Of a DNA stretch of 20,000 nt, positions 2,739-17,436 are shown in pieces (position 1 is the stretch's first letter; each line of letters opens with the position of its first letter). The DNA is from an uncultured virus (IMG/VR IMGVR_UViG_3300006116_000009). Taxonomy: Duplodnaviria; Heunggongvirae; Uroviricota; Caudoviricetes. The notes beneath the pieces were generated by a model. The model ran no database searches. It had not been told where the DNA came from and saw nothing but the letters and a program-made list of their open reading frames with translations. The position numbers were made by a program, and so were the translations under genes. The DNA is taken from the IMG/VR virus record IMGVR_UViG_3300006116_000009; one strand, written 5' to 3'.

Positions 2739-5700
2739 ATGCCTAGTTACCCGTTACTTGCAAATGCCGTTCGTGCTTTAGCCAATCAAGATGATGGCGC
2801 AGTTCGACGTGACGGTGTTGGCTTCAACGGTGGGGATACCAAGTTTGGCAATCGCCTAGCCCAAGTACCAGACGAAGCGTGGTCGCCAGAAATGGCACTA
2901 GAAGCGTGGCAGATGCTGGGTAAGTACCGTGAGCAACTGCAACGGATAGGCATTGACTTTAGCAAAGTCCCTGAACCAATCGTGTCCGAAAAATCAAAGG
3001 CTATTGCACGTGGTGTTAAGGCAGTAGACATTAGAAACAATCACGTGGTGGTGTTTATCCCCTACGGTGAGCCACTGTACCCTAAAGTCCCCCTGACCGC
3101 AGTATGGAACCGTGACATCAAAGGCTGGGTCGTAGCAAAGGAAAAGTACGGCGCAGTATTGGGCTGGGCTGAAAAGAACAAAGTGCCGGTATCTGACCGT
3201 GCCAAAGAATTTCTAGGCAAAGTACCGCCAATAGAAAATGCCAAATGGAATGGTGAAGTAGTTTTAGAAAAAGGGCAACTTGTAATCAGGTTTGACTACA
3301 ACGTAGAAATCCTTGATTCCGTCCGTAGCCTAAGCCAACGTCATTACAACGCCGAAGACAAAACGTGGTCTACCCCAAAAGAAAACGTAATGGCAGTCAA
3401 GGAATTGGCAGCGAAGCACCAACTTTTCCTGACCGAAGATGTCAAGCGATTGCACGGCGAAGAAATCAAACCTTGCCCCAAGATTGGCGTGTTGCATGAC
3501 AAATTTGCCATCACCTTCAACTACCAATCAAACATGGTCAGCGAAATTAGGCAGATGCCTGGGTCTGTGTGGTCACCAGACGAACGTGTTTGGGTTATCC
3601 CTGTAGAAAGTGTCCAAGAAGTAAGGGATTTCGTCACCAAGCACGAAGTTGAAATTTCCAAAGATGCGGAACTGTTGTTTATCGAAGCAGACACGGTGGC
3701 AGAAATTATCGAGTCATCACAGGCGCACGATGCCGACATTGACATCAAGGGGTTTGGTGACGAGCAGTACAAATTGTTCCCGTTCCAACGTGCCGGTGTT
3801 GCTTACGCTATGCAAGCAATGGGATACGAACACCACGAAGGCGAATGGAAGCAAAACACGCCAACCACTGGTGGCGTACTTGTAGGCGACGAAATGGGAT
3901 TAGGTAAGGCGCAGGTTCACGGAACAAAAGTTCTTACGCCTAAGGGCTGGACAAACATTGAGAACTTATCGGTTGGCGATGAGGTGATTGGGTCTAACGG
4001 ACACGCCACAAAAGTCACGGGAGTATTCCCTCGTGGCGAAATGGATGTGTTCACCGTTGGCTTCAATGACGGTTCAACCTTAGACGTATCGGGCGACCAC
4101 CTATGGGCAGTTCAGAGTGTCCAAAACGGATACCGTAAGCCCGACGAATGGCAAGTTAGAGATACTAACTACCTCGCAGAAAATCTCATAGACGGCGCTG
4201 GCAACTCAAAATGGAAAATCCCATTAGTTCAGCCTGTTTACTTTGAGGGCAACGAACCGCTACCAATTGACCCTTACCTTTTAGGAGTGCTGTTGGGTGA
4301 CGGTTGTTTAGGCGGTGCGAGCATAAGTGTCACATCAGCAGATGAATTTATTATTGAGGAAGTCAAAAAGCGTATACCTGAGGGTATGGGTATGACTAAG
4401 CACGGCGAATACGACTATCGCCTTGTATCACCAAGGGCAGGTCTGCCAAATGAACTAGGGCGCACGCTAAGTAAGTTGGGGCTTCGCCTAGGGTCTGGCG
4501 AAAAGTTTATTCCCGAAATGTACTTACGCTCAACGCCCGAAAACCGCCTTGCCCTGTTGCGTGGTCTAATGGACACTGACGGATTTGCCGGTAAAGACGG
4601 AACGAACGAGTTTGTAAGCATTAGTAAAGACCTTGCTGATGGGGTGACGGAGTTGGTTCAAAGTCTCGGCGGTGTAGTGCGCCGTAGCACTAAGCAACCT
4701 ACAAAAAACGGTGCTGATTACGGTCAGTTGGCGTATCGGGTAAATATAAAGTTGATGGACTGTCCATTCTTTATGCCACGCAAAGCAAATGATTGGGTCA
4801 AGCCAACCAAGTATCCACCTAACCGAAACATAAAGTCAATTACGCCCAATGGTCGTGGGCAGGTGACTTGTATTGCCGTGGAAGCACAAGACCACTTATA
4901 CGTCACAGAGCATTACCTAGTGACGCACAACACACCGCAGGGTCTAGCCATTGTCAAAGCGGCTAATGCTTTTCCAGCAGTCATAGTCGTCCCAGCCAGC
5001 CTGAAACTGAACTGGGAACGGGAAGCCAAGCGTTGGATAAAGGGCGTGAAGGTAGCCGTTCTAGGTGGCACTACGGGCGAAGTACCCGAAGCCGAAATCT
5101 ACGTCATCAACTACGACGTACTTACCCATTGGGTGGATAAATTTCCACATATCAAGGCATTGGTCTTGGACGAAAGCCACTACATCAAGAACGGGTCAGC
5201 ACAGCGTTCCAAAGCGTGTGTACGCCTGTCGGACAAGGTGGTCGAGGGTGGCATACGTGTCTGCCTATCAGGGACACCTATCGTCAATCAGCCCACGGAA
5301 ATCATCACCCAACTACGGGTTATCAACCGTCTAGATGAATTCGGTGGTGCGACTAAGTTTCGCAACACCTATGGTAGTGCTAGTGGTCGAAGCCTTGCCG
5401 CCCTGAACCGCAAACTACGTTCCACCTGTTACGTTCGTCGCCGGAAAGCCGACGTGCTAACTGAACTGCCCCCAAAGCGTTGGTCGCAAGTGTTCGTCGA
5501 AGGCAACGCCAAGGTGATGAAGGAATACCGTGAAGCGGAAGCAGACATTGTAAATTACCTAGCCGACCTAGCACGGGAAATTGCATTGGAATCGGGCGCA
5601 ACGGATAAAGAAGCACAAAACGAAGCGTGGCGCAAAGCACTAAAGGCTCGAGCCGCCGAACAGTTGGTTGCTATTTCCACCTTGAAGCAGTTAGCCGCCA

Positions 5701-6224
5701 AAGCCAAAATGGAAGCCGCCCGTGAATGGATTGACAACTTTGTAGATGGCGATAAGAAGTTGGTGGTGTTTGGTTGGCACCGTTCAGTCGTAAATGAAAT
5801 TGCCGACAACTTTAGCAACGGCGTGAAAATTCAAGGTGGGCTAACCCCCGAAAAGCGTCAAGAAGCCGTGGACGCATTCCAAAACGACGACAAACAAAAA
5901 GTGATTGCTTGCAATATCAAAGCCGCTGGGGTTGGACTTACGCTAACTGCCGCTAGTGATGTGTTGTTCCTCGAGCAAGGGTGGACACCAAGTGACATGG
6001 AACAAGCAGTAGACCGTTGCCACCGTATCGGTCAGCAAGACAGCGTGACTGGTTGGCTTATGTTGTGCGCTAACACCATTGACGAAGACATTGCCGTACT
6101 GATTGACAACAAGCGTTCTATCGTAGACCGTGCCATTGACGGGTCAAATGATGACGAAGAAGAAGCACGTTCTATTGTGGGCGACTTGTTGGTAAGTCTG
6201 GCAGAACGTGGACTAAATCGGTAA
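2739..6224 (+). CDS. SNF2-family (SMARCAL1/HARP-like) helicase/ATPase precursor containing an intein
   Basis: GDEMGLGK|intein|T Walker A, VVPASL, LVLDESH (DExH), LSGTP, GVGLTL and QAVDRCHRIGQ motifs. Three N-terminal F.Y...W....K.W repeats. Confidence 0.92.
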   Translation: MPSYPLLANAVRALANQDDGAVRRDGVGFNGGDTKFGNRLAQVPDEAWSPEMALEAWQMLGKYREQLQRIGIDFSKVPEPIVSEKSKAIARGVKAVDIRNNHVVVFIPYGEPLYPKVPLTAVWNRDIKGWVVAKEKYGAVLGWAEKNKVPVSDRAKEFLGKVPPIENAKWNGEVVLEKGQLVIRFDYNVEILDSVRSLSQRHYNAEDKTWSTPKENVMAVKELAAKHQLFLTEDVKRLHGEEIKPCPKIGVLHDKFAITFNYQSNMVSEIRQMPGSVWSPDERVWVIPVESVQEVRDFVTKHEVEISKDAELLFIEADTVAEIIESSQAHDADIDIKGFGDEQYKLFPFQRAGVAYAMQAMGYEHHEGEWKQNTPTTGGVLVGDEMGLGKAQVHGTKVLTPKGWTNIENLSVGDEVIGSNGHATKVTGVFPRGEMDVFTVGFNDGSTLDVSGDHLWAVQSVQNGYRKPDEWQVRDTNYLAENLIDGAGNSKWKIPLVQPVYFEGNEPLPIDPYLLGVLLGDGCLGGASISVTSADEFIIEEVKKRIPEGMGMTKHGEYDYRLVSPRAGLPNELGRTLSKLGLRLGSGEKFIPEMYLRSTPENRLALLRGLMDTDGFAGKDGTNEFVSISKDLADGVTELVQSLGGVVRRSTKQPTKNGADYGQLAYRVNIKLMDCPFFMPRKANDWVKPTKYPPNRNIKSITPNGRGQVTCIAVEAQDHLYVTEHYLVTHNTPQGLAIVKAANAFPAVIVVPASLKLNWEREAKRWIKGVKVAVLGGTTGEVPEAEIYVINYDVLTHWVDKFPHIKALVLDESHYIKNGSAQRSKACVRLSDKVVEGGIRVCLSGTPIVNQPTEIITQLRVINRLDEFGGATKFRNTYGSASGRSLAALNRKLRSTCYVRRRKADVLTELPPKRWSQVFVEGNAKVMKEYREAEADIVNYLADLAREIALESGATDKEAQNEAWRKALKARAAEQLVAISTLKQLAAKAKMEAAREWIDNFVDGDKKLVVFGWHRSVVNEIADNFSNGVKIQGGLTPEKRQEAVDAFQNDDKQKVIACNIKAAGVGLTLTAASDVLFLEQGWTPSDMEQAVDRCHRIGQQDSVTGWLMLCANTIDEDIAVLIDNKRSIVDRAIDGSNDDEEEARSIVGDLLVSLAERGLNR
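3909..4931 (+). mobile_element. Class 3 (Ala1, WCT) intein with LAGLIDADG homing endonuclease, 341 aa
   Basis: Starts AQVHGTKVLTPKGW, block B SGDHLW, LAGLIDADG motifs LLGVLLGDG and LLRGLMDTDG, block F VTCIAV, ends LVTHN/T. Removal restores GLGKT. Confidence 0.93.
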
Positions 6225-6449
6225 TTACTTACCGGAAATGCTTAGGGCGTAAGTCGTAGCCTGTTGCGCCCTAGCCTTTAGCAACGGGGCATCAGGACTA
6301 CCATTCGCCTGTGACACGGCAAGTCGTTTCCAAAGTTCGCTGGCATCAGCAAGGGCTTTAGCAATACGGGCGTACTGCGAAGAAGCGTATTCTTCACCCT
6401 CAAAACGGTCAGTCAGCAGGGCGCTGGTAGTGAAATCAGGCGTTGGCAA
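6225..6449 (-). CDS. Leader-family protein 1, 74 aa, Ala-rich helical
   Basis: TTG start with AGGAGG 5 nt upstream. N-terminus DFTTSALL. RFEGEEY resembles a degenerate PFEGNQY. Confidence 0.7.
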   Translation of the reverse strand: MPTPDFTTSALLTDRFEGEEYASSQYARIAKALADASELWKRLAVSQANGSPDAPLLKARAQQATTYALSISGK

Positions 6450-6852
6450 CGGAGCCTCCTGTGGTCACACCCGTCACGGGGGTCGAGTCGTTCATCACCA
6501 TAGCATTTGCCGATTGCGAAGCGTCAGCAGCAGCCTGAGTTGCCCCTCGAGCGTTCAGCCCGTCAGTTTTGGAATTCTCGGTTGCTGCGTGTTCGTGCAA
6601 GTCAGCAGCGTGGTTATTCATTTCGGCATACTTGGGGTTGGTCTTGGCAAATGCTTGCGCCACCTTACGGTGTTCCTCCGCCAATCGCAAGTGCGTTTCT
6701 TTCCTAGCCTTCATGTCTTGTTTGCTAGAAATGTTGTGGGCATCAGTAGCCAACAACGCCAACTTTTGCCCTTCAGCAGTGTGGCGTGGCAAGGCGTGGT
6801 TCTTTGGATACCGAGACTTACCCTTGAGTAATGCTTCGGTAGTGAAATCCAT
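6436..6852 (-). CDS. Leader-family protein 2, 138 aa, Ala/His-rich helical
   Basis: MDFTTEALLKGKSRYP, with HLRLAEEH..HAADLHEHAA. ATG overlaps the upstream stop. Confidence 0.8.
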   Translation of the reverse strand: MDFTTEALLKGKSRYPKNHALPRHTAEGQKLALLATDAHNISSKQDMKARKETHLRLAEEHRKVAQAFAKTNPKYAEMNNHAADLHEHAATENSKTDGLNARGATQAAADASQSANAMVMNDSTPVTGVTTGGSVANA

Positions 6853-7406
6853 TAGTACCCAGTGGCAAATAAGGCTTCGTTGTACCCTTGACGTGACATA
6901 ACAAACGCACGGTGGCTAGCAAGCCAAGCGTCCTTGATAGGGCTGTCCCAATCGGGAATACGAATGTTGTCACGGTCAGAATTGGAATTCTGGTGGCGAT
7001 TGTCAGTACTGAAATCCACAGCCTGTGGACTACCAGCGACGTTCTGCATACAAACCTTTGACGCTTGCAAGTGTGCGCCGTAAGCATCACCATGTGCCGA
7101 AACAGCCTTGACGTTGCTAGCAGGGTTGGCGTTCTTCATGTCTTGCGCAAGTTGGTAGTGGGCTTGCGCCAAGGCATTGTGTAGTTGCGCCATGCTGGTG
7201 TAGTCATCAGCACTAAGGGGGGCAGACTGACCAAAATGTGCCGATTCTTGTTGGTCGGAAATCAACCCAGCCTGACGGTACAAATCAGCGGAACGAAGGG
7301 CAAAAGGGTTGTTAGTAGCCATACCAGCAGGGGTAAACGAAGGTAGATAGTTGAAGTCACTGGAACCCTTTGTAATGTTTTCTGGTGAAAAACGGTTATT
7401 GTTCAC
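6852..7406 (-). CDS. Leader-family protein 3, 184 aa
   Basis: GTG with RBS GGAAGGA. Sequence RFSPENITKG, LHNALAQAH..AHGDAYGAH. Confidence 0.8.
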   Translation of the reverse strand: MNNNRFSPENITKGSSDFNYLPSFTPAGMATNNPFALRSADLYRQAGLISDQQESAHFGQSAPLSADDYTSMAQLHNALAQAHYQLAQDMKNANPASNVKAVSAHGDAYGAHLQASKVCMQNVAGSPQAVDFSTDNRHQNSNSDRDNIRIPDWDSPIKDAWLASHRAFVMSRQGYNEALFATGY

Positions 7407-7455
7407 GGATTTCCTTCCCTGCGTATCGCTACAAATCTACACCCACATTTAGAAA

Positions 7456-8298
7456 TTAGTCAGTTCGCACTTGCTTTAGGGCTTCGTTCTTTGCCTTATC
7501 AGCCTGCTGTGACATTTCCAATGCGTTTTGTGATGCTTTTTTGTTATTTCCATACGTAACGTCAGCCTGTGGTTTCCAACCACCCTCGACTTTGGAAGTG
7601 GAATAAGCGTTCTGGTCTGCGGCGTTCCCTGCGGTGAAATGGGCTTGTGCCGCTTGACGGTTGATAACGGCAGCGTTAGTTAGGGTGCGTGATAAATCAT
7701 TTTCACCACCGCCATTATTGGCACGGGCAATAGACGCTTGTAGTTCTAGCCCTTCGGCAACACCACGATGTTCGTGTGCCAAAGTCCAATGGACACCAGC
7801 AATAGCCTTTAGGTTGGGGTGTGGATTGGTCACGGGGGTGTCGTAGTACCCAAGTACCTGTTCGGCATCAGGGGCAAGGTCAGGGTCAATAAATTGCCCC
7901 TTGTTGATTACTGCTTGGTTGGCGGCATTCGTAAAATTGGCAGCCCGTGACGAATACTGTTGGGCTTTTTGCGAAGTTAGGGCATTGGAAGCAATTGAAT
8001 TACCCGTGACGGGGCGAATGGCGTTTATTTCACTAGCCGCATCGTCGTGGGCTTGCGCTGCTTCCAAATGTGCTTGTTTAGCCTTACCAGACGGTAACTT
8101 GCTAGCAATAGCCCTATGTTCACTAGCAATCTTGCGGTGTGTTTTCACCGTGTTGGGCAAATCATCTTCCAGCGTTTCCCGAAGCCCATTGGCTTGACCA
8201 GAAAGGGCTGCTGACTGTTGGTTTATCCCAACGCCTAGTTTGGAAACGGGATACCGTGACAGCGACTTTAGAAGTTCTGAGGTAGAAAACCCAGACAT
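7456..8298 (-). CDS. Leader-family protein 4, 280 aa, two His/Ala modules
   Basis: MSGFSTSELLKSLSRYPVSK, THRKIASEH..AHLEAAQAH, internal INKG, then a second module VHWTLAHEH..NRQAAQAH. Confidence 0.82.
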   Translation of the reverse strand: MSGFSTSELLKSLSRYPVSKLGVGINQQSAALSGQANGLRETLEDDLPNTVKTHRKIASEHRAIASKLPSGKAKQAHLEAAQAHDDAASEINAIRPVTGNSIASNALTSQKAQQYSSRAANFTNAANQAVINKGQFIDPDLAPDAEQVLGYYDTPVTNPHPNLKAIAGVHWTLAHEHRGVAEGLELQASIARANNGGGENDLSRTLTNAAVINRQAAQAHFTAGNAADQNAYSTSKVEGGWKPQADVTYGNNKKASQNALEMSQQADKAKNEALKQVRTD

Positions 8299-8747
8299 TA
8301 GTACTTCTTACTGCGATACGCCCCTACGCCACCAGCGCCAGCGTCAGGAATACCGTTTTCGTGGTCGTACTTTTCTGCTTCCCACGTTGCCTTAGCAGCC
8401 TTACGTGGCGTAAAGTGGGTCACTTTTTCAGCAGGGGTAGTCTTTCGCTCCCCAGCACCACCAGATGAAATAAAGTGTTCGAGAAATGCCTTGCGATGCA
8501 GTGCTTCACCAACTTTGTCGCCACGAACACGGGCTGCGACTTCGGCGGATTTGTGATGTGACAGCATGATGTCATGCTGACGTTCAAATTCGCCAGCCTG
8601 CTTAGCGTTAAAGTTCGGCATTGAGTCTTTGTCATCAGAAATACTTTGCGCCTTGTCAGTCCACTGATTTCCCTCAAATGGGTGACCGACCACAGCCCCC
8701 TTTGTCAAGGGATATAAAAGACCGTTGGTAGAAAAGTCATGCGTCAT
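8298..8747 (-). CDS. Leader-family protein 5, 149 aa
   Basis: MTHDFSTNGLLYPLTKGAVVGHPFEGNQW, QHDIMLSHH..LHRKAFLEH. Leaderless -10 lies 6 nt upstream. Confidence 0.82.
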   Translation of the reverse strand: MTHDFSTNGLLYPLTKGAVVGHPFEGNQWTDKAQSISDDKDSMPNFNAKQAGEFERQHDIMLSHHKSAEVAARVRGDKVGEALHRKAFLEHFISSGGAGERKTTPAEKVTHFTPRKAAKATWEAEKYDHENGIPDAGAGGVGAYRSKKY

Positions 8748-8753
8748 AAAACA

Positions 8754-8795
8754 AGGATACCAACGAATACCAAAATCCTAAATGTGGTTTATTAT
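8754..8795. promoter_or_regulatory. Back-to-back divergent leaderless promoters
   Basis: Minus strand TG-G-TATCCT (8759-8754) is 6 nt from ATG 8747. Plus strand TATTAT (8790-8795) is 7 nt from ATG 8803. Neither has an SD. Confidence 0.65.
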
Positions 8796-8802
8796 GGGCG
8801 GT

Positions 8803-9336
8803 ATGACTAGCAACCCTTTCTCCACCGAAAACCTTGTTCCTACTTGGGCGGTCGCTAGTGAAATCTTGAAAGGCGACACACAAGGACACCCATTTCGAGG
8901 CAATCAGTTCACCCACGCCGATGCCATTGACATGGAAAAGGACGCTCAGCAGTCGCTTGACGAGGGACACAAGAACTACGTAAGCGCCGACGATTACGAG
9001 GGTGAAGATGACACCACAGTCCCCTACGGCGACACGTATGTTTCTCTCGGCGGAGGCGGCGCATGGGAGGGTCACAACGACGATGTAGCCGAAAACGCTA
9101 GAAAATTTGAGGACGCCGCCGGTGGTTTTAGGGACGCTGCTGAAATTCACTTGGGGTTGGCTTCTCGAGCGACGAACGCCAATGACGCTATTTTCCACAC
9201 CAACGAAGCGCACCGCCTAAATCGAGCCGCTGATAGTGCGGAAGAATACATGGACGACCAAAATGACCAAAAAGTTTCTGACCCAGATGAACCTACTTTT
9301 GACCCACCAGATTACGACTACGACCCCTACTACTAA
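8803..9336 (+). CDS. Leader-family protein 6, 177 aa, very acidic
   Basis: MTSNPFSTENLVPTWAVASEILKGDTQGHPFRGNQF. ATG 8803 chosen by alignment with its paralog and by promoter spacing. Confidence 0.82.
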   Translation: MTSNPFSTENLVPTWAVASEILKGDTQGHPFRGNQFTHADAIDMEKDAQQSLDEGHKNYVSADDYEGEDDTTVPYGDTYVSLGGGGAWEGHNDDVAENARKFEDAAGGFRDAAEIHLGLASRATNANDAIFHTNEAHRLNRAADSAEEYMDDQNDQKVSDPDEPTFDPPDYDYDPYY

Positions 9337-9351
9337 GTAGTGAAATAACTA
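9337..9351 (+). repeat. 15-bp direct repeat copy 1, GTAGTGAAATAACTA
   Basis: Forms the entire spacer between TAA 9336 and ATG 9352. Identical to 9877-9891. Confidence 0.9.
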
Positions 9352-9876
9352 ATGACAAATCCATTTGACACAAACAATCTTGTTCCTACGTGGTCTAATA
9401 CTGGAAAAATCTTGAAGGGCGACTTTAACGGACACCCTTTCCATGGAAACCAATGGGAACAAGCAAGCCAAATCCGTCAGGACGCACACGAACTTGCAAC
9501 AAAAGCAATTCAAGCCGATGCGCACGTTGATAACGGCGACTATGAAGAAGCAATGAAATTGCACAGTGACATTGAGGACGGTCACAGGGAACTAGCAAAA
9601 GCGTTGCGTGGCATGGTTGTTAATAGCACGCATGACGTTTATGCCAATAAAAACGCCAAACTTACTGCTGCCGCTGATGCCCACGAAAAAGCCGCCGATT
9701 TGCACAGCGAGGCACGAGGTCTACACGCCGACGAAGCAGGTTTCGTGCAACAGTATGACTGGGAAAGCGGCCCAATGTATGACCCACCAACCGCCGGCGG
9801 TGAAGCCACGTGGGACGCAGATAAAGCCAGCAGTGACGCTGCAGCACTAACTGACACGGCGTTGAAGGGTCTGTAG
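9352..9876 (+). CDS. Leader-family protein 7, 174 aa
   Basis: MTNPFDTNNLVPTWSNTGKILKGDFNGHPFHGNQW, LHSDIEDGH..AADAHEKAADLH. Confidence 0.85.
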   Translation: MTNPFDTNNLVPTWSNTGKILKGDFNGHPFHGNQWEQASQIRQDAHELATKAIQADAHVDNGDYEEAMKLHSDIEDGHRELAKALRGMVVNSTHDVYANKNAKLTAAADAHEKAADLHSEARGLHADEAGFVQQYDWESGPMYDPPTAGGEATWDADKASSDAAALTDTALKGL

Positions 9877-9891
9877 GTAGTGAAATAACTA
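9877..9891 (+). repeat. 15-bp direct repeat copy 2, GTAGTGAAATAACTA
   Basis: Begins immediately after TAG 9876. Identical to 9337-9351. Confidence 0.9.
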
Positions 9892-9907
9892 CTGTAGGGT
9901 AGTAGTT

Positions 9908-11110
9908 ATGAACATCAACGTCAATGCTGAACTAGTACCCATTGAGTCCATCAAGCCCCACCCACAAAATCCCCGTTTGGGCGACGTGGTGGCAATCGCT
10001 GAATCACTGGAAGTAAACGGGCAGTACAGCCCCGTTGTAGTTTGGAACGACACCATTATTGCTGGCACCCACACGTGGAAGGCAGCCAAGTCGTTGGGGT
10101 GGAAAGAAATCGCCATCACCAAGTTCCAAGGAAGCGAAGACGACGCATTACGGGTGCTTATTACCGACAATCGCACGTCAGACATAGCGAACTACCACAA
10201 TGACCTATTGCTTGACCTGTTGCGCAGTTTGCCTACTTTGGAAGGTACGGGCTACGACACCGCATTTCTAGATGAATTAGACGGGGTGTTCCAAGATGGC
10301 GGTGGGGGCGTATCCCACGACCCGTTGGTGGACGAACAAGAGGAAAAGACGGAACCGAACCCCATTATTCGTTTCGGTGCCGTTTTCACCGGCGAACTAG
10401 ACCCCGTAATCTACGGCATTTGGTTGGACAGCATCAAGGACGCAGTTGGCGATAAGAAAGCCAAGGTAACTAGTGAAATCCGTGACCGCCTAGACATTCC
10501 CCGTGAAGCCAAGCCCAAGGCAAGCAAGACCAAAGTAGGAAAGTCGGAAACCCCCAAAGTCTCGATGGTGGAAACCACGCTCGTCCCCCTGTCGGAACTC
10601 CGTCGCTACCCTTCCAATCCCCGTGAAGGCGACATCGGCGCAATCAGCGAAAGCCTGCGTATCCTCGGGCAGTATCGCCCCATCGTGGTCAACAAGCGCA
10701 ACAACCAAATCCTCAAGGGCAACCACACCGCAGCAGCAGCATCAGCACTCGGCTGGAGCGAAGTAGCGGTTGTCTGGGTAGACGTGGACGACGAACAGGC
10801 GACCCGTATCGTGCTGGCAGACAACCGTATTGCAGACAAAGCCACCTACGACAATGAACTACTAGTCACCGCCGTATCGTCGCTGAAATCCCTAGACGGG
10901 TCGGGTTTTGACGATGACGACTTGGCAGACATCGCTAAGGGCAAGGAAATTCAACAAAACTCCGTCAAGGTCAAGTTCCAAGTCGGTGATAGCAAATTTA
11001 GTATCACGGACGACCTGTATCAGACGTGGCTTGGTGAAACCAGCGTTCCCGACGAGGCGTTGGCAAGACTAGGACTGCCCCTTTCAGCACTGCTACGTGA
11101 AGGAAACTAA
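9908..11110 (+). CDS. Protein with two tandem ParB/sulfiredoxin-like N-terminal domains
   Basis: VPIESIKPHPQNPRLGDV..IAESL..GQYSPVVV..IIAGTHTWKAA..ITDNR is repeated as VPLSELRRYPSNPREGDI..ISESL..GQYRPIVV..ILKGNHTAAAA..LADNR. TAGGGT -10 lies 7 nt before the ATG. Confidence 0.88.
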   Translation: MNINVNAELVPIESIKPHPQNPRLGDVVAIAESLEVNGQYSPVVVWNDTIIAGTHTWKAAKSLGWKEIAITKFQGSEDDALRVLITDNRTSDIANYHNDLLLDLLRSLPTLEGTGYDTAFLDELDGVFQDGGGGVSHDPLVDEQEEKTEPNPIIRFGAVFTGELDPVIYGIWLDSIKDAVGDKKAKVTSEIRDRLDIPREAKPKASKTKVGKSETPKVSMVETTLVPLSELRRYPSNPREGDIGAISESLRILGQYRPIVVNKRNNQILKGNHTAAAASALGWSEVAVVWVDVDDEQATRIVLADNRIADKATYDNELLVTAVSSLKSLDGSGFDDDDLADIAKGKEIQQNSVKVKFQVGDSKFSITDDLYQTWLGETSVPDEALARLGLPLSALLREGN

Positions 11111-11158
11111 ACCGCAAAACCCGTTGTAGCATTTAGTGAATCTAAAGGAGCAAACCCT

Positions 11159-12331
11159 ATGTCATCTGGCTTCCACACTAACGAACTAATGAAATCGCTT
11201 AGTCGCTACCCTGTTGCCAAGGGCGGCCCTGGCTCCGGCCCACGCCCCGGACAGGGTGGTGGTGTAGAAAGCCACGCTTACAAGGCTGGACAGCACTGGC
11301 AAGTCGCCACCGCCTTGACGGGCATGGCTCGTGAAGAAACCGACCCTAAACTTCGGGACTTACTGCTTCGTGCTGCCGAAGCACACGTACGTGCTGGCGG
11401 AGCGCACTTGGACGCAGACAACCACCCCAATGACCCCACTGCCGAGAACCTTGCCCAACAATACACCACTGCCGCAACGGAAGCAAGCCGTGCCGCAGGT
11501 CGCTACGAACGACCTAGGGGCGAACGAGAATACTCCGATAGCGTAAATAAGGGCGCACAACGGGGACACCCATTTGAGGGAAACCAATACACCCCTATGG
11601 GGTCACAGGCACAAGCAATAGAAAATCGTGCTGAAAGTATGTTTCACCGTGACGCTAATGGTCCGGAGCGCAACACTTGGGGCGGAAACACCGATAAAGA
11701 TTTTGAGGACATTGTTTCTGCGCACAAGCAACTCGAGGCTGACCACCGTGCTGCCGCTGCTAGTGAATACGCAAAGGGAAACACCAAGGCAGGCGACCTG
11801 CACATTGCCGCTGCTCGGGCGCACGGTGACGCTGGGGACGCATGGCGGAATTCAAGAGCCGCTACAGGTCTTGCTTTCGCTCCTAATTATTCTTTTGCTG
11901 CTTACAGTCGGTCAGGAGATGCTACACGTGCTACCAATCATGCCGTAAGCAATTCATCCCCAGATGGTGTTTCCAAGGGCGCACAACCGGGTCACACATT
12001 TGAGGGCAACCAATACGTTTCGGGTAGCAACCAAGCATCTGAAGCACGTCGCCTTGCCGATGCCGTAAAGGACGGTTCCGCCGACCACTTTACCGCTGAA
12101 GGGCAACACCGTGTGATTGCCCGTGCTTGCGAGGAACAAGCAAAGTCGGCTAGTGAAAACGGATTGAAGCGCCTCGCCAATGCGTACACCAAGGCCGCTA
12201 AGTTGCACCGTGATGCTTCAGCCGCTCACGTGAATAATTTGGTTATTGTGAATGGCAAGGCAGACCCCGTAAAGGCAAGTGAAGCCGCTGCTAAGGCTTC
12301 GGAACACGCTGACGACCTGAACTACGCATAG
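11159..12331 (+). CDS. Leader-family protein 8, 390 aa, three His/Ala modules each preceded by V-x-K-G
   Basis: RBS AAAGGAG. Sequence MSSGFHTNELMKSLSRYPVAKGGPGSG, VNKGAQRGHPFEGNQY, VSKGAQPGHTFEGNQY. Confidence 0.88.
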   Translation: MSSGFHTNELMKSLSRYPVAKGGPGSGPRPGQGGGVESHAYKAGQHWQVATALTGMAREETDPKLRDLLLRAAEAHVRAGGAHLDADNHPNDPTAENLAQQYTTAATEASRAAGRYERPRGEREYSDSVNKGAQRGHPFEGNQYTPMGSQAQAIENRAESMFHRDANGPERNTWGGNTDKDFEDIVSAHKQLEADHRAAAASEYAKGNTKAGDLHIAAARAHGDAGDAWRNSRAATGLAFAPNYSFAAYSRSGDATRATNHAVSNSSPDGVSKGAQPGHTFEGNQYVSGSNQASEARRLADAVKDGSADHFTAEGQHRVIARACEEQAKSASENGLKRLANAYTKAAKLHRDASAAHVNNLVIVNGKADPVKASEAAAKASEHADDLNYA

Positions 12332-12333
12332 TC

Positions 12334-12546
12334 GTGTGGTCTTGGGTTCTTAGCCTATTAGGTATCCTTTGCACGGTACTTATTGGTAAAAAGTATTGGT
12401 GGGCGTGGTTGATTTCTAACTGCGTGAACGTCCTTTGGATTATCTTTTCCATCACCACCAAGCAGTATGGTTTCTTGCTAACCAGCGTTGTGTATGCCGT
12501 GTTGTATTGGAACAACATGGTGAAATGGCGTAACGGAAAAGATTAG
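12334..12546 (+). CDS. Small three-TM membrane protein resembling the half-size PnuC-like nicotinamide riboside transporters of actinophages
   Basis: WSWVLSLLG..GKKYWWAWLI..VLWIIFSITTKQYGFL..Y..W, with three hydrophobic segments in 70 aa. Confidence 0.6.
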   Translation: MWSWVLSLLGILCTVLIGKKYWWAWLISNCVNVLWIIFSITTKQYGFLLTSVVYAVLYWNNMVKWRNGKD

Positions 12547-12552
12547 GAACCC

Positions 12553-12580
12553 TTGACATTGTTCTAATCCCGTCTAACGT
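12553..12580 (+). promoter_or_regulatory. Putative leaderless promoter
   Basis: TTGACA (12553-12558), 16 nt, TAACGT (12575-12580), GTG 5 nt later. Confidence 0.55.
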
Positions 12581-12585
12581 TAGGC

Positions 12586-13005
12586 GTGTCACTCAAAGAC
12601 CCAGATAAGCGTCGTGAATATGACCGACAGCGCAAGCGTGAACTACGGGAAAAAGACCGTGATGCGTTCAACCAAAGCCAGCGTGAATACTACGCCGACA
12701 ATAGTGACCGCATAAAAGAACAAGTCACCAAGCGTCGCAAAGCCAATCGTGCAAGGATACGCAAGTATCTGAACGAGGTGAAATCTAAAGAATGTTCGGA
12801 CTGCGGATTTGTGTATCCGCCCCACTGCATGGACTTTGACCACCTAAGCGATAAGCATTTCAACGTAAGCGAAGCCGCTTCGGGCAACTATTCGCTAGAA
12901 ACCATCAAGGCAGAAGTAGCCAAGTGTGAAGTGGTGTGTTCCAACTGTCACCGTGAACGCACCCACCAACGTCGAAATAAAAAGAAACACCCACCGGCTG
13001 CTTGA
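12586..13005 (+). CDS. HNH endonuclease with basic helical N-terminus
   Basis: CSDC..MDFDH..KHFNVS..EVAKCEVVCSNCHRERT. Confidence 0.88.
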   Translation: MSLKDPDKRREYDRQRKRELREKDRDAFNQSQREYYADNSDRIKEQVTKRRKANRARIRKYLNEVKSKECSDCGFVYPPHCMDFDHLSDKHFNVSEAASGNYSLETIKAEVAKCEVVCSNCHRERTHQRRNKKKHPPAA

Positions 13006-13030
13006 TTTCATTATCTAACCCTGATACAGT
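13002..13030 (+). promoter_or_regulatory. Putative leaderless promoter
   Basis: TTGATT (13002-13007), 17 nt, TACAGT (13025-13030) with TG extension, GTG 13038 7 nt later. Confidence 0.6.
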
Positions 13031-13037
13031 AGCGATT

Positions 13038-13424
13038 GTGCAAGAACCCGGATACCCAGACGAAGCGACTATTGCTTCTATCCAACACCAAGCGGAAAAA
13101 CTAGGGTATCTAGTTGCACAGGTAGAAACCTTGTTTGACCAGCGTGTTCGTTGGGAACGCCACCGTGAAACAGTGCGCCATTCCACCAAGTCCACTGGCG
13201 ACCTTAGCGAATGGATGACGGCACAGATTTCGTCCGAGGAACTAGCCGAACGTGCCGCTGTGTTGTTACAGGAAACGTCGGATAAGTACGACCACATCAA
13301 GGCGAACTACCAGCACAACATCAACACCCTGAACCAAATGGTGTTAGACAGCATCAACCGTGGCAAGTCGCAAGCCAATGAACTAGATGAAACCCTTAGT
13401 GAAATACTGAAAGAAGGCAAATAA
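13038..13424 (+). CDS. Hypothetical coiled-coil protein
   Basis: ORF 13002..13424. Start moved to GTG 13038 on promoter geometry. Confidence 0.7.
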   Translation: MQEPGYPDEATIASIQHQAEKLGYLVAQVETLFDQRVRWERHRETVRHSTKSTGDLSEWMTAQISSEELAERAAVLLQETSDKYDHIKANYQHNINTLNQMVLDSINRGKSQANELDETLSEILKEGK

Positions 13425-13888
13425 TGTCAAGCGAATTCCCACACAACAAGTGGAGCGAACACAACAAGTGGAGCGACCCAAAGAAGTACCCCCACAACGG
13501 TTGGTATCCCGAACCCACGATTACTGACCTGTACAGCGCAATCAACGGGCTGAAGAAGCAAGTCGAAGTCCTTGTTGAGCAAAACCGTGACACTTTGAAC
13601 TTGTTAATGGAAATTGTCGGTGGCGAAGAAGAAAACGAAGAAATTGGCATTGTCGAAGTGGTGTTGGTAGAAAACGGCTACGACATTGCTGAGGAAGAAA
13701 GTGGTTGCGGTGAAAACTGCAAGTGCAAGCCACAGTTCCCATTGGGCGGAGAAACCCCCCTCGACGATGTTTGCATTTGGTTGGAACAGCAAATTGACAT
13801 CTGGGGTCGCAACGACGAAACCCGTGCAGTTGGCTACCAGCACACCTTGGAACACATCAAGCGCCTACAAAAGTACATTGGCGAATAG
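13424..13888 (+). CDS. Hypothetical acidic protein with short coiled coil and CGENCKC cluster
   Basis: ATG overlaps the upstream TAA and has RBS GAAGG. 154 aa. Confidence 0.75.
   Translation: MSSEFPHNKWSEHNKWSDPKKYPHNGWYPEPTITDLYSAINGLKKQVEVLVEQNRDTLNLLMEIVGGEEENEEIGIVEVVLVENGYDIAEEESGCGENCKCKPQFPLGGETPLDDVCIWLEQQIDIWGRNDETRAVGYQHTLEHIKRLQKYIGE
13441..13476 (+). repeat. Perfect in-frame 18-bp tandem duplication
   Basis: ACACAACAAGTGGAGCGA x2, encoding HNKWSE-HNKWSD. Confidence 0.9.
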
Positions 13889-13934
13889 TTGCCATGTCAC
13901 GGGTCATTGGGTACGGCATTTGTTCTAAGTGCCA

Positions 13935-13958
13935 CCAGTCAATTCAATTACTGACTGG
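13935..13958. terminator. Possible intergenic hairpin or terminator
   Basis: CCAGTCA-N10-TGACTGG in the gap between genes. No U-tract. Confidence 0.3.
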
Positions 13959-14039
13959 CGAAACTGATTACGTTCACCAAACCCCTGACATAACCCACGA
14001 ACCCACACTAAAAATGTGGGACAACGATTGGATTGTGTA

Positions 14040-14609
14040 GTGAAATCAAACACCTTTGGCGTTCCAATTATTGGCATTACCGGATATGCGCAAAGTGGCA
14101 AAAGTACATTGGGCGAACTGATTGTTCACCACAACGGGGCGCACCACGCCAACTTTGCCGATTTGATGCGTGACTTTCTGTACGCCATAAACCCACTAGT
14201 CACCCCCAAGTCACGTGTTCAAGACCTTGTAGACCACCTTGGTTGGGAACGGGCAAAAGTGGGATACCCCGAAGTACGCCAACTAATGCAACGTCTTGGC
14301 ACTGACGCTGGACGCAAACTGTTTGGTGAAACCTTTTGGGTAGACCAATTCTTTGCCAACGTGGGCAAGACAGACCTTCTGGTTATTTCTGACGTGCGAT
14401 TTCCAAACGAAGCGCAAGCCATCAAAGACCGTGGTGGAATCATCGTGCGCATTGTCCGTGACGGCTACGAACCTGTGAACGCACACGTTAGCGAAACGTC
14501 ATACAACGACCAAGATTTCACTATTTACAACGACGCAAAACCTGATGACTTGTACGTGTTTTTTCGCAACGCATTTGCTACATACTTGACAAACACCACT
14601 AAACCGTGA
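14040..14609 (+). CDS. Deoxynucleoside monophosphate kinase (T4 gp1-like family)
   Basis: IIGITGYAQSGKST P-loop, FAD, RQLMQRLGT..GR, ISDVRFPNE, HVSE. Start uncertain (GTG 14016 or 14040). Confidence 0.88.
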   Translation: MKSNTFGVPIIGITGYAQSGKSTLGELIVHHNGAHHANFADLMRDFLYAINPLVTPKSRVQDLVDHLGWERAKVGYPEVRQLMQRLGTDAGRKLFGETFWVDQFFANVGKTDLLVISDVRFPNEAQAIKDRGGIIVRIVRDGYEPVNAHVSETSYNDQDFTIYNDAKPDDLYVFFRNAFATYLTNTTKP

Positions 14610-14615
14610 TACGGT
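14586..14615 (+). promoter_or_regulatory. Putative promoter for the secreted protein
   Basis: TTGACA (14586-14591), 18 nt, TACGGT (14610-14615) with TG extension, followed by RBS AAAGGAAAG. Confidence 0.6.
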
Positions 14616-14644
14616 TAGTCATTACCCAACCAAAGGAAAGACAA

Positions 14645-15082
14645 ATGATTAGCAAGACCAAGAAGTTCGCATTAGCAATTGCTATTGCGTCCGTTGTATT
14701 ACCCGTTCTACCGGCAAGTGCTAGCACGTCAAGCAAGTATTACTCGTGGAAGCGTGCCACGTTGCCCATTATTTCTAAGACGGTAAACGATTACTCGTCC
14801 TTGACCATTGACCTTACGAACGGCAACGCTAGTAGCGCATCGGCAGACCTGACCACACTGGGCAACGACGCACGGGCAATTAACAACCACGCCAACTCGC
14901 CCGACTACACCCTGAACCTCAAGGTGAACAACCTTGCCATTGCGTTGGCAAACCTTGCGTCGGTTGGTCAGACCACCCTGAACGGTGGCTCGCTTGGACC
15001 GTGGCGCAACGCCCTTGTTCGATGGAACAACGCCGAGACTGCGTTCACCAACCGTTTGTCATACGACAACAACCGCTGGTAA
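14645..15082 (+). CDS. Secreted helical protein with Sec signal peptide
   Basis: MISKTKKFALAIAIASVVLPVLPASA/ST has n, h and c regions with an AxA site. ATG 14645 has a strong RBS. Confidence 0.8.
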   Translation: MISKTKKFALAIAIASVVLPVLPASASTSSKYYSWKRATLPIISKTVNDYSSLTIDLTNGNASSASADLTTLGNDARAINNHANSPDYTLNLKVNNLAIALANLASVGQTTLNGGSLGPWRNALVRWNNAETAFTNRLSYDNNRW

Positions 15083-15085
15083 AAA

Positions 15086-15322
15086 GTGTCCATCTGGGCG
15101 GTGGTAGCAGTATCTTTGCTATCAGGTATCTGCATAGGTATCGGCGTTAGTATCACTTTTCTTCAGAAAAAATCTAACGAATACGCTAAAATGTTCCCAC
15201 CGCCCGGTTGGGATAGTCGTGCTAAGAAGTGCCACGACGTGACCCTTGTAGCAAGTGGCGGATTACTCCACCACACCACTTGCTGGTGTCACGAAAGGCG
15301 CAAACATGAAAACACTGATTGA
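15086..15322 (+). CDS. Small single-TM protein with C-terminal Cys/His cluster
   Basis: Hydrophobic residues 3-26, then KCHD..HHTTCWCH. Confidence 0.7.
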   Translation: MSIWAVVAVSLLSGICIGIGVSITFLQKKSNEYAKMFPPPGWDSRAKKCHDVTLVASGGLLHHTTCWCHERRKHENTD

Positions 15323-15458
15323 AGCACTAAAGAAGAAGCGAAACGACAGTTGGTTCTTTTCACCACGTGACCAACGTTGCGTTCGTTGCGGTTACATCCA
15401 ACTTGACCACCACTTTTCCCCCTGTGCTTGCCACAAATTTAAGGGATACGCTGGCTAA
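15306..15458 (+). CDS. Small Zn-finger-like protein, 50 aa
   Basis: RBS GAAAGG and ATG 15306. Sequence CVRCG..DHH..CACHKF. Confidence 0.65.
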   Translation: MKTLIEALKKKRNDSWFFSPRDQRCVRCGYIQLDHHFSPCACHKFKGYAG

Positions 15459-15500
15459 ATAGCCACCCCTTGCCTCACCAACCCTGCTAGAGTTATTGGC

Positions 15501-15656
15501 ATGGTAAACACCACCCACAGGCAGTCGCTACTGACTGAACTAGCAAAACTTAGGGTAAAACTTTCTGCCCTGAACTACGAAGTCGCTGAACTAAAAGCAG
15601 AAAACGAAAAGTTGCGTTCGCAGTTAGTGGGGGGCAACAATGCTACTCAAGGGTAA
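15501..15656 (+). CDS. Small coiled-coil protein, 51 aa (below the ORF-track cutoff)
   Basis: MVNTTHRQSLLTELAKLRVKLSALNYEVAELKAENEKLRSQLVGGNNATQG has heptad periodicity. TG-C-TAGAGT -10 (15488-15493) lies 7 nt before the ATG. Confidence 0.7.
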   Translation: MVNTTHRQSLLTELAKLRVKLSALNYEVAELKAENEKLRSQLVGGNNATQG

Positions 15657-17436
15657 TTGCTTAGACCTACTGAAAACGTTGCCTGATAACAGCGTGGACA
15701 GCATCGTTACCGACCCCCCATATGGATTGGAATTCATGGGGCGTGATTGGGATGCCCCATGGAAGCAAAGTGAAGTGGTGGAAGTCACTGACAAAGCCAC
15801 CAACGGGATATTTCACGACAAAGGGTTCAAGAACGGCATCCGTTATTCCCGTGGAACACAGGAAATGGTTGCGTTCCAATTGTGGTTTACTGAAATCGCT
15901 GAGGAGTGTTTCCGTGTCTTGAAACCAGGCGGTCACATTTTGTCGTTCGGCGGTTCACGGACGTACCACCGCATGGCGGTAGCGATTGAGGACGCTGGTT
16001 TCGAGATTAGGGACAGCATCCACTGGACATACGGTTCGGGATTCCCCAAGTCAATGGACATTAGCAAAGCCATTGACAAGCAGGGTGGTGAAAACATTGG
16101 GTGGTTCATTGACCTTTGCCTAAAGGTGGCAGAGGAAAAGGGGATTACCAAGAAACAATTAACCGATTTGTTTCCGTCAAAGAACGGCAAGCCAACGGGC
16201 TGGCTTTACAACAAGGCTTCACACACCCAATCCATTTCACCAGAACAATTTAATGTTTTGCGTGATTTTCTTGATTTGCCATACGCCGACTTAGCAGAAG
16301 CCGAGCGTGAAGTAGTGGGCTACAAAGAAGCCGGTATGGGGTCTGGTGAAACATTTGGTATGCGCCAAGCAGAAGGCGACAATGCTAGCGCCAACAAAAC
16401 CGTTCCAATCACCGCACCCGCCACCCCCGAAGCCCAACGCTGGCAAGGCTGGGGAACGGCTATGAAGCCTAGCCACGAACCTATTGTGGTGGCACGAAAG
16501 CCCGTTGAAGGCACGGTAGCCAACAACGTACTGAAATACGGCACAGGGGCTATCAACATCGACGGCACACGAGTTGGGACGACCAAAGAAGTACCGGGTA
16601 CGGCAAACAGCAAAGGCGAAACGTCAGGCTACATGAAAGGTTGGGGCGACCACACCGATGAAATGTCGGGCAAGAACCCGAACATGGGTCGGTGGCCCGC
16701 AAACACCATACTTACACACTCGTCAGCCTGTCGCCAAGTAGGAGAAACTAGCGAAACCGTAGTCACTACCAACGGCAAGGGATTTGCCGGTTCGTTTGAG
16801 GGTGGTGAAAACAACAACGGCGGTGCAGAAACTAAGGTATCCACGCCTATTTGGGAGTGTGCCGACGATTGCCCGACCAAGTTGTTCCCCGAAAGCAACG
16901 GCGGTGCGTTTCCCAAGAAGGGCAATACGCCAACGGGGGAACACTACGAAGGTGGTTGGAAGTCCGTAGACAACGGTGTACGTACTGAAATGGGTTCCGG
17001 TTCAGCATCACGGTTCTTTAATCAGACCGAATACGACGATGACATGGACTTTCCACCAATTATCTACCAAGCAAAGGCAAGTAAGGCAGACCGCAACGCT
17101 GGACTGAATTGGGTACGCCCCGAAGAAGGTATGGGGTCGTACAACTTCCGTGTCAATGGTTCGTTAGATGGCAAGCAAACCGCCCCGAAGCAAAACATTC
17201 ACCCCACCGTGAAGCCAGTTGCCCTTATGCGCCACCTAATTCGCCTCGTAACGCCACCGAACGGCGTAGTGCTAGACCCGTTCTTGGGTTCCGGTACAAC
17301 GGCTGTAGCCGCCATTTTGGAAAACTGCCAATGGATAGGTTGTGAAATGACCGAGGACTACTACGACATAATCGAAAAGCGTGTGGAATGGGCTATGTAC
17401 CAAGCCAATGCACCTAAGCAAGAAAGCCTGTTCTAA
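15640..17436 (+). CDS. Beta-class amino-DNA methyltransferase (N6A/N4C family) with internal HTH-like insertion
   Basis: IVTDPPY near the N-terminus, RVLKPGG, HEPI, HPTVKP, and VLDPFLGSGTT near the C-terminus. Confidence 0.92.
   Translation: MLLKGNCLDLLKTLPDNSVDSIVTDPPYGLEFMGRDWDAPWKQSEVVEVTDKATNGIFHDKGFKNGIRYSRGTQEMVAFQLWFTEIAEECFRVLKPGGHILSFGGSRTYHRMAVAIEDAGFEIRDSIHWTYGSGFPKSMDISKAIDKQGGENIGWFIDLCLKVAEEKGITKKQLTDLFPSKNGKPTGWLYNKASHTQSISPEQFNVLRDFLDLPYADLAEAEREVVGYKEAGMGSGETFGMRQAEGDNASANKTVPITAPATPEAQRWQGWGTAMKPSHEPIVVARKPVEGTVANNVLKYGTGAINIDGTRVGTTKEVPGTANSKGETSGYMKGWGDHTDEMSGKNPNMGRWPANTILTHSSACRQVGETSETVVTTNGKGFAGSFEGGENNNGGAETKVSTPIWECADDCPTKLFPESNGGAFPKKGNTPTGEHYEGGWKSVDNGVRTEMGSGSASRFFNQTEYDDDMDFPPIIYQAKASKADRNAGLNWVRPEEGMGSYNFRVNGSLDGKQTAPKQNIHPTVKPVALMRHLIRLVTPPNGVVLDPFLGSGTTAVAAILENCQWIGCEMTEDYYDIIEKRVEWAMYQANAPKQESLF

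Follow-up and report, generated by a model that had tools for sequence, protein, structure and literature searches.

The internal proteins IPI-III and Alt of phage T4 carry a capsid-targeting sequence (CTS) that is cut by the protease gp21; the mature proteins are divergent, and the gene sets vary between relatives (PMC9026906). In phage P1, DarA is processed and packaged and DarB has an N-terminal CTS; the Dar proteins lack a consensus CTS (PMC9024508). MuF-fused toxins and polyvalent proteins (Zhang et al. 2012; Iyer et al. 2017) combine several domains (ART, kinase, zeta-like, GNAT, ParB and PBECR) in cargo that is packaged into the head and for which processing by an assemblin-like peptidase was proposed (PMC3482391, PMC5512222). 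Here, we analyse eight open reading frames (ORF1 to ORF8) in a 20,000-nt stretch of DNA from an uncultured virus (IMG/VR record IMGVR_UViG_3300006116_000009), the whole of which we call the window. An earlier note, made from the sequence alone, had proposed that a shared N-terminal leader and a lysine site on these ORFs form an addressing system that loads diversified cargo into the phage head. According to our analysis, the eight products are probably accessory internal head proteins that would be loaded through the leader, cut by a prohead protease of the XkdF type and left with a conserved tag as their new N-terminus.

Like the T4 internal proteins, the window family has a short shared N-terminal propeptide on divergent bodies, the arrangement that characterizes a T4-type CTS, and a three-residue protease motif at the end of the propeptide. 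Unlike in T4, the sites in the window end in Lys instead of the T4-type Glu motif, the protease of a complete relative, G008, is XkdF (PF14550) and not gp21-type, the capsid is of the phrog_1005 type, leaders also occur internally, and there are polyproteins. In addition, a conserved tag is left after the predicted cut, and none is described for T4 in the available text of PMC9026906. Because both the protease and the cleavage motif differ, membership in the T4 family fails.

The ejection paralogs of SPN3US and phiKZ, which are cut at A/S-x-E, are likewise paralogous head proteins whose N-termini are identical and which have a P3-x-P1 motif (PMC5694885, PMC10052503), but they belong to giant myoviruses with a T4-like protease and mostly long propeptides, and no retained tag is described in the parts of these papers that we could consult. 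MuF and polyvalent cargo is matched by tagged proteins of other contigs, which include MuF and DarA-like fusions with the same domain types; the window ORFs, in contrast, have no MuF or enzyme domain, and neither a cleavage code nor a tag is named in the available portions of those papers. With the P1 Dar proteins the window family shares the principle of capsid-loaded cargo with a short packaging signal, and a DarA-like protein of the Xanthomonas phage Rb1 is tagged; the capsid lineage and the predicted P1 residue of the window system are different. A related protease is found in the cultured Arthrobacter phage Edmundo, a Laroyevirus, whose XkdF is 65% identical to that of G008 and which has the same scaffold layout with seven [ILV]xK[GAS] scaffold sites. 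Unlike G008, its 20-kb head region contains no match to the leader model and, in the 14 proteins inspected, no tag. Because Edmundo has the sites without the tag in the region examined, the tag appears to be accessory.

Leader, lysine site and tag

The eight ORFs are all present on both strands of the window, with the leader cores that the earlier note had quoted (Table 1). That the leader is common to them held by pattern: the core F-x-[TP]-x-x-[LI] lies within the first 10 residues of 8/8 family ORFs and 0/19 other window ORFs, and shuffling all 27 window ORFs gave a mean of 0.08 and a maximum of 2 occurrences (5000 shuffles), a test that is partly circular because the pattern was derived from the same eight ORFs. 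A leader hidden Markov model (HMM) was trained on 33 leaders from other contigs, none of them from the window, and is also partly circular because these were chosen by a similar regular expression; of 266 window segments it picked out seven of the eight ORFs and no others, missing the ORF at 6852-7406. The motif SRYP was confirmed in three family ORFs and occurs once in one unrelated ORF. We take the core, more precisely F-[STDH]-[TP]-x-x-[LI], to resemble a helix capping box with a hydrophobic staple, and the AlphaFold2 model of ORF4 has a low-confidence helix at the leader core. Entire leaders also recur internally in proteins of G008 and of another relative, G010. A head-module protein found in L419:17350-19383, L228:3-1235, L197 and L212 has an internal leader copy (F-S-T-x-x-L-L-T-R-D-F) before a site and a tag, and this leader type resembles that of ORF1.

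The motif [ILV]xK[GAS] occurs 14 times in the family ORFs, compared with 3.2 expected, and 17 times in the other window ORFs, compared with 13.4 expected. The claim that a lysine site follows the leaders thus stood, with two corrections: ORF1, of 74 aa, also has such a site, with LNK/A in the equivalent position of its homolog in L028 (slashes mark predicted cuts), and the LLKG of ORF2 (6436-6852) equals the inner LLK[SG] of the leader, the outer site having decayed. In the tagged genes of G008, the motif was still found 24 times with 14.6 expected and 8 times with 3.5 expected when tag-adjacent sites were masked. Lysine cleavage is a feature of the HK97 capsid and of some Herelleviridae capsids, for which our search returned no confirming paper.

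A stronger motif, which was overlooked in the earlier note, is the tag GH[PT]FxGNQ[YWF]. In the longer form G-x-x-x-G-H-[PT]-F-x-G-N-Q-[YWF] it stands directly after the lysine site in five copies, one each in ORF5, ORF6 and ORF7 and two inside ORF8. A GGPGSG variant occurs once in the window, opening the first unit of ORF8, which is, as its sequence reads, a three-unit polyprotein. The putative address would thus have two parts, a removable leader, seen earlier, and a retained tag. A scan with a lysine-containing tag pattern found at least 217 stretches; a lysine-free, codon-restricted scan found at least 150, corresponding to 107 distinct tags, 106 of which had enough upstream sequence. Among the matches listed for the latter scan, G was at position -4 in 100/106 tags and D or E at position -3 in 106/106. 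In the 100 listed tags with G at -4, the preceding residue was K in 67, L in 11, D in 6, N and A in 4 each, V in 3, E in 2 and another residue in 3, and P3 was V, I or L in 62 of the 67 listed tags preceded by K. When tags of one contig were compared in pairs, the preceding residue agreed in 614 of 742 pairs, where permutation gave 300 on average and at most 396, and in 91 of the 119 pairs from non-K contigs, in a set of analyst-chosen contigs that includes several close kin.

At the DNA level, the tags form 25-nt repeats with 72-84% identity. Because every synonymous codon is used, the tag appears to be conserved as protein rather than DNA, and we rejected the reading of these repeats as a DNA element. 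Of 30 distinct occurrences of the variant GGxGSG in the loci examined, 27 stand after K; in an L-type contig the variant follows L. Other Gly-rich motifs (HPR..G.F, PRD..G.W and NPxGxNQY) were noticed at similar module starts in L398:10106-11437, L400, L403, L411 and L396, and these HPR/PRD/NPxGxNQ-type motifs may be alternative tags. In other contigs, the tag is also fused to a portal, a MuF protein, a protease-scaffold protein and a DarA-like protein.

Queries with the short tag returned seven records and established one true tag, in Rb1, the sole record opened, where the tag follows ALD in a protein that is annotated as an internal head protein and encoded next to genes resembling DarA and DarB. 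A match in Lc-Nu is antisense and one in Atu_ph07 lacks the tag; both were rejected as chance. Scanning GTDB gave three matching stretches, all within metagenome-assembled genomes, from which no host was assigned. In the literature searched, the motif strings had no match, although the tag might appear in alignments supplementing papers on polyvalent proteins or jumbo phages.

Relatives, head genes and prohead proteases

The nearest database record spans 7 kb and matches window positions 9171-16325 exactly. G008, a complete 121-kb genome, is syntenic in the order helicase, leader genes, ParB, leader genes and small membrane gene, with 66% identity to the window for ParB and 76% for the C-terminal part of the helicase. 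Because G008 encodes two WhiB genes and its protease is 65% identical to that of the Arthrobacter Laroyeviruses, an actinobacterial host was inferred, and the window would represent a tailed phage genome of ~120 kb that probably infects Actinobacteria.

The window family is connected to head genes through these relatives. In G008, the portal is followed by the XkdF protease (PF14550, E 1e-13) and then by a tagged block; 17 of its 24 tags lie in this block, six in the syntenic remote cluster, one elsewhere and none in the tail block. Three further relatives (G004, G007 and G010) have tags directly downstream of XkdF and a second tag group elsewhere. The bodies themselves also occur there: the ORF3 body resembles (36% identical over 160 aa, E 5e-26) the opening unit of the G008 gene that comes next to XkdF, ORF8 unit 2 has an 84% identical counterpart four genes past XkdF in L415 and a 47% identical one in the gene directly after XkdF in L419, and ORF8 unit 3 occurs in the same L419 head block. 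Within the tagged head-cargo block of G008 lies a Dps/ferritin-like gene (L228:3143-3601).

The His and Ser motifs of XkdF, which we take to be catalytic, are invariant in 7/7 relatives. XkdF has been proposed to be a head-processing peptidase (PMC7824862). The earlier note had asked whether head proteins share the lysine site. In G008, enrichment was found for scaffold and protease, with 13 sites and 2.2 expected, and not for capsid and portal; counts were at expectation in the tail (12 and 12.8) and in non-structural proteins (13 and 12.3), the protein groups having been picked by the analyst. Judged from these counts, the sites of G008 are enriched in scaffold and protease and not in non-head proteins, as substrates of XkdF should be. 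XkdF was detected over the cut-off in 12 of 30 contigs with K before the tag and in none of 20 others, many of the contigs being fragments. The residue before the tag pairs with the protease: N and A types with Mu-like Pro, D and L/A types with DUF2213, E types with phrog_15531 and D types with DarA-bearing phages. Shuffling of non-tag sites showed clear enrichment in G008, G017, G035, G023, G040 and G036, marginal enrichment in G053 and G054 and none in several others. Two observations concern XkdF itself. In Edmundo (L420:9296-10408) it is fused behind a 2H phosphoesterase with LTK/A at the junction, where sister phages annotate RNA ligase or aldolase; in the precursors in L228:5877-7703, L415:5926-7653 and L419:7232-9070, the protease domain is preceded by Cys-rich segments and an extended tract of poly-Ser/Asp.

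Leaders, tags and bodies are shuffled among relatives. In L002, the closest relative, the ORF8 leader is 95% identical and the body unrelated (23%), units 2 and 3 of ORF8 form a separate gene under another leader, which unit 2 opens, and in the ORF6 slot the leader is kept (77%) and the body replaced (16%). Hence, better conservation of leader than body, on which the earlier note had staked its interpretation, was seen in two of six syntenic slots of L002, in which the body was swapped. Elsewhere, unit 2 is a gene of its own in L415 and unit 3 in L003/L417, or unit 3 is the last unit of several polyproteins; in relatives it is nearly always entered through a lysine site and a tag or tag variant. 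ORF8 homologs are polyproteins with a repeated site-tag joint, the ORF4 homolog in G008 is a second unit preceded by an internal leader, the leader type of ORF5 also heads unrelated bodies in G010, and the body of ORF2 has a 93% identical counterpart in L002. Cluster gene content differs even between close relatives.

Payloads and surroundings of the cluster

The earlier note recognised no named family, and this was borne out: for the eight ORFs, Pfam gave only matches below the cut-off (Imm5-like E 0.069, MIT 0.035, DUF4363 0.09), PHROGs, NCBIfam and PADLOC gave none (for PADLOC, which holds defence and not anti-defence models, 0 families for 8 proteins at E 0.1), and library scans detected no MuF or known enzymatic effector domain. 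A tblastn search of cultured phages with ORF8 had no match, sequence searches of the PDB gave nothing below E 0.018 (a Kaede/GFP strand match at E 0.023 was taken as chance), and the ESM Atlas returned no usable feature match, only generic helical bundles.

Similarity among the bodies is weak (best E 3e-9, between ORF4 and ORF8 unit 2); they contain almost no Cys and are rich in H-x6-H spacing, with 18 occurrences against 2.4 expected in the family and 6 against 2.4 in the other window ORFs. The ORF4 model is all-helical with a mean pLDDT of 68. Unit 3 of ORF8 is modelled as an up-down four-helix bundle (pLDDT 86.6) with the tag outside regular structure and three invariant residues, His45, His78 and His85; its fold matches include talin R3 (Z 12.2), NiSOD (Z 9.0) and SmbP (Z 8.5). 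Foldseek searches with the ORF4 model against the PDB and with the unit 3 model against BFVD gave nothing at E 0.001. SmbP has His heptads, and NiSOD has an N-terminal hook freed by proteolysis; unit 3 fits in fold and His spacing, but these fold scores are unspecific, and it has no sequence match to either and no Cys. It is possible, if doubtful, that the window payloads bind divalent metal through H-x6-H pairs. Net charges of the eight products range from +2 to -28, the latter for the ORF6 body, whereas T4 internal proteins are basic (PMC9026906); because of this difference, DNA condensation is an unlikely function for ORF6 and ORF7.

Among 212 tag-led units, 41 pass a crude His-heptad/Ala-rich criterion. 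When 112 of the other 171 were scanned, 19 matched Pfam, namely ART exoenzyme (4), ART-PolyVal (2), zeta toxin (3), HipA/PI3K-like kinase (5) and five single matches. A combined leader-tag profile picked out 561 clusters from 8000 scored candidates. In the best 120 of these there are 447 tags, spaced at a median of 191 aa, together with MuF, portal, XkdF, ART, GNAT, ParB and topoisomerase domains, without a family name. The same address appears to be used in relatives for ADP-ribosyltransferases, kinases and other enzymes.

Table 1. Features of the leader-gene cluster; a slash marks a predicted cut.
Feature	Position	Strand	Description
ORF1 (74 aa, TTG start)	6225..6449	-	Leader FTTSAL, long leader type; site IAK/A at K31; short helical body; untagged
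ORF2 (138 aa)	6436..6852	-	Leader FTTEAL, LLK/G, SRYP; His/Ala helical body; untagged
ORF3 (184 aa)	6852..7406	-	Short leader FSPENI, ITK/G; His/Ala body
ORF4 (280 aa)	7456..8298	-	Leader FSTSELLK/SLSRYPVSK/L; two His/Ala helical units; untagged
ORF5 (149 aa)	8298..8747	-	Leader FSTNGLLYPLTK/; tag at 8661-8699 directly after LTK
ORF6 (176-184 aa)	8782..9336	+	Start probably 8806; leader NPFSTENLVP..ILK/; tag at 8872-8910 after ILK
ORF7 (174 aa)	9352..9876	+	Leader NPFDTNNLVP..ILK/; tag at 9418-9456 after ILK; acidic His/Ala four-helix-type body
Double ParB-like gene	9908-11110	+	No leader; cluster context, not a member; orthologs in G002, G007, G008 and G010, 57-77% identical
ORF8 (390 aa)	11159..12331	+	Leader FHTNELMK/SLSRYPVAK/; three units opened by VAK/GGPGSG, VNK/tag and VSK/tag
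GGPGSG variant tag	11222..11239	+	After VAK, opens ORF8 unit 1; sequence reading
Internal site VNK and tag	11543..11590	+	Opens ORF8 unit 2; sequence reading
Internal site VSK and tag	11969..12016	+	Opens ORF8 unit 3; sequence reading

Because the leader is shared with sister ORFs, the true start of ORF6 is likely 8806 rather than 8782. The cluster is flanked by an intein-bearing SNF2 helicase gene, an HNH nuclease gene, a dNMP kinase gene and two DNA methylase genes, in addition to the double ParB gene, whose product is encoded inside or beside the leader cluster in four relatives. The helicase gene (2739-6224, + strand) has a LAGLIDADG intein in the Walker A region (~3909-4931) that is absent from the G008 ortholog. 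The methylases are a tandem pair of N6/N4 DNA methylase genes with near-identical N-termini (15640-18683, + strand), and L002 has at least three such genes in tandem with differing inserts. ORF8 adjoins a fragment of a PnuC-like membrane protein of 70 aa (12334-12546, + strand), and similar small genes end the cluster in G008 and L417. An HslV-family peptidase-like gene (phrog_1040) lies at 782-1264 (+ strand). ORF6 and ORF7 each have a copy of a 21-nt direct repeat (90%) after their stop codon (9334-9354 and 9874-9894), a possible trace of cassette duplication. Promoter and terminator scans gave no excess over shuffled sequence.

Proposed mechanism, alternatives and significance

We propose that the cluster is a cassette, remote from the head operon, that encodes accessory internal head proteins. 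The short helical leader would dock each protein on the prohead core during assembly, as the T4 capsid-targeting sequence does. Comparison with relatives lends good support to the prediction that an XkdF-type prohead protease then cuts after [ILV]-x-K and removes the leader, and the same cuts would split polyproteins such as ORF8 into units of 10-15 kDa. Most mature units would start with the tag, G-[DA]-x-x-G-H-[PET]-F-x-G-N-Q-[YWF], or with GGPGSG, whose position after the site is observed and whose function can be suggested. The payloads could perhaps be His/Ala four-helix bundles that bind divalent metal. Because the tag opens payload modules, is absent from the G008 scaffold sites and is common to phages with unrelated capsids, we read it as a mark for keeping a piece in the head and delivering it with the DNA, a plausible though not quite probable choice among the functions that a tag could have. 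A role after the cut is favoured over one in packaging because the tag occurs on modules that enter the head in any case, being fused to portal, MuF protein or protease, and is missing from the G008 scaffold sites. A bolder and more tentative version is that G-D-x-x-G-H-[PE]-F-[HR]-G-N-Q-[YW] might be a portable, general export tag, exposed as a new N-terminus by whichever prohead protease is present, that selects in unrelated tailed phages the fragments kept and ejected with the genome.

Loading through the leader is supported by leaders kept while bodies are swapped, by the site shared between cargo, scaffold and XkdF and by the bodies found in portal-XkdF head modules. Several points weigh against the proposed mechanism. 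The window contains no head genes, four of the eight ORFs are untagged, and leader and body are equally conserved in the four other syntenic slots of L002. The addressing claim of the earlier note does not extend to capsid and portal of G008, which show no enrichment of the site (3 with 1.5 expected); the capsid protein has no leader, and the leader HMM matches none of the capsid, portal, scaffold and protease of G008. Lysine sites are not avoided within units (149 observed and 114 expected in 337 unit interiors), and our literature search found no paper demonstrating the cleavage specificity of XkdF. With P3 classes that were chosen once the tags had been seen, the class matching the tag ranked first or second of 60 at non-tag protease and scaffold sites in nine of 18 sets, one of which (G017) requires a K-AKR linker reading, but fourth in three sets and outside the top four in six, including all four P1-like D-type sets. 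Cassette copying could also produce the within-contig agreement of the residue before the tag, the fold matches are generic (Z below 13 is unspecific for helical bundles), and most SPN3US head proteins require no cleavage (PMC10052503).

The main rival accepts the cargo system and makes the tag a prime-side docking sequence that brings cargo to the protease, ensures the cut and has no role after cleavage. Under this reading, which we judge rather unlikely, it is expected that the tag starts exactly at the predicted P1', as the residues at -4 and -3 in the listed matches show, and that it is common to phages with differing capsids but with XkdF, Mu-like Pro or DUF2213 proteases, which we assume to be of one fold. 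However, all 13 sites in the G008 protease and scaffold are untagged, and because Edmundo has XkdF and its scaffold sites without a tag in the proteins inspected, cutting would not need the tag. The units could instead be structural ejection or core proteins, such as a pilot conduit or filler, and not effectors acting on the host. Their Ala-rich all-helical folds fit this, similar units are inserted into protease-scaffold proteins of other phages, and IPIII of T4 aids head assembly (PMC9026906), but an essential conduit should neither vary in gene content between close relatives nor be missing near the head genes of the cultured phage with the 65% identical protease; we consider such a role unlikely.

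A function of the tag in metal binding is quite unlikely in our view, although it would account for several features. The amino group, Asp and His of the tag, freed by proteolysis, would form a hook that pairs with the His-lined bundle and buffers metal or oxidants around the packaged DNA, which is consistent with the invariant His residues and H-x6-H excess of the four-helix bundle, with SmbP and NiSOD among its fold matches, with the Dps-like gene in the G008 cargo block and with tag plus His-helix units in E-, N- and D-type phages too. Against this, talin domains score above SmbP and NiSOD in a Z range that is unspecific, Cys is almost absent from the family, and just 41 of the 212 tag-led units pass the His-bundle criterion, many others being enzymes. 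It is equally improbable that leader and tag serve as homology handles by which cassettes recombine, or as simple co-inherited linkers, on proteins that never enter the head and function inside the infected cell. The position of the cluster among non-structural genes on both strands and the body swaps at joints where the tag gives 25-nt repeats suggest such handles, but the tag is conserved as protein, it is fused to portal, MuF, protease-scaffold and DarA-like proteins, and the lysine site is enriched in scaffold and protease.

Addressing of capsid cargo is a principle already known from T4, P1 and SPN3US, and the eight genes, taken alone, form an accessory cassette that follows it; the part worth testing is the protease-independent retained tag. 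Because lysine cuts would be invisible to trypsin-based proteomics, they may have gone unreported for this reason. The tag can be tested in cultured phages. The choice of internal proteins for ejection into the host is known chiefly from T4, P1 and a few giant phages. A tag of 13 residues at the start of cargo modules in phages with unrelated heads flags hundreds of unannotated candidate injected proteins. It also predicts mature cargo boundaries and P3-P1 specificities of prohead proteases for which the literature searched holds no experimental data. If the tag is indeed portable, the specificity of several uncharacterised prohead protease families could be read from the three residues that precede it: Lys for XkdF, Asn/Ala for Mu-like Pro, Asp or Leu/Ala for DUF2213, Glu for phrog_15531 and Asp for the P1-like enzymes.

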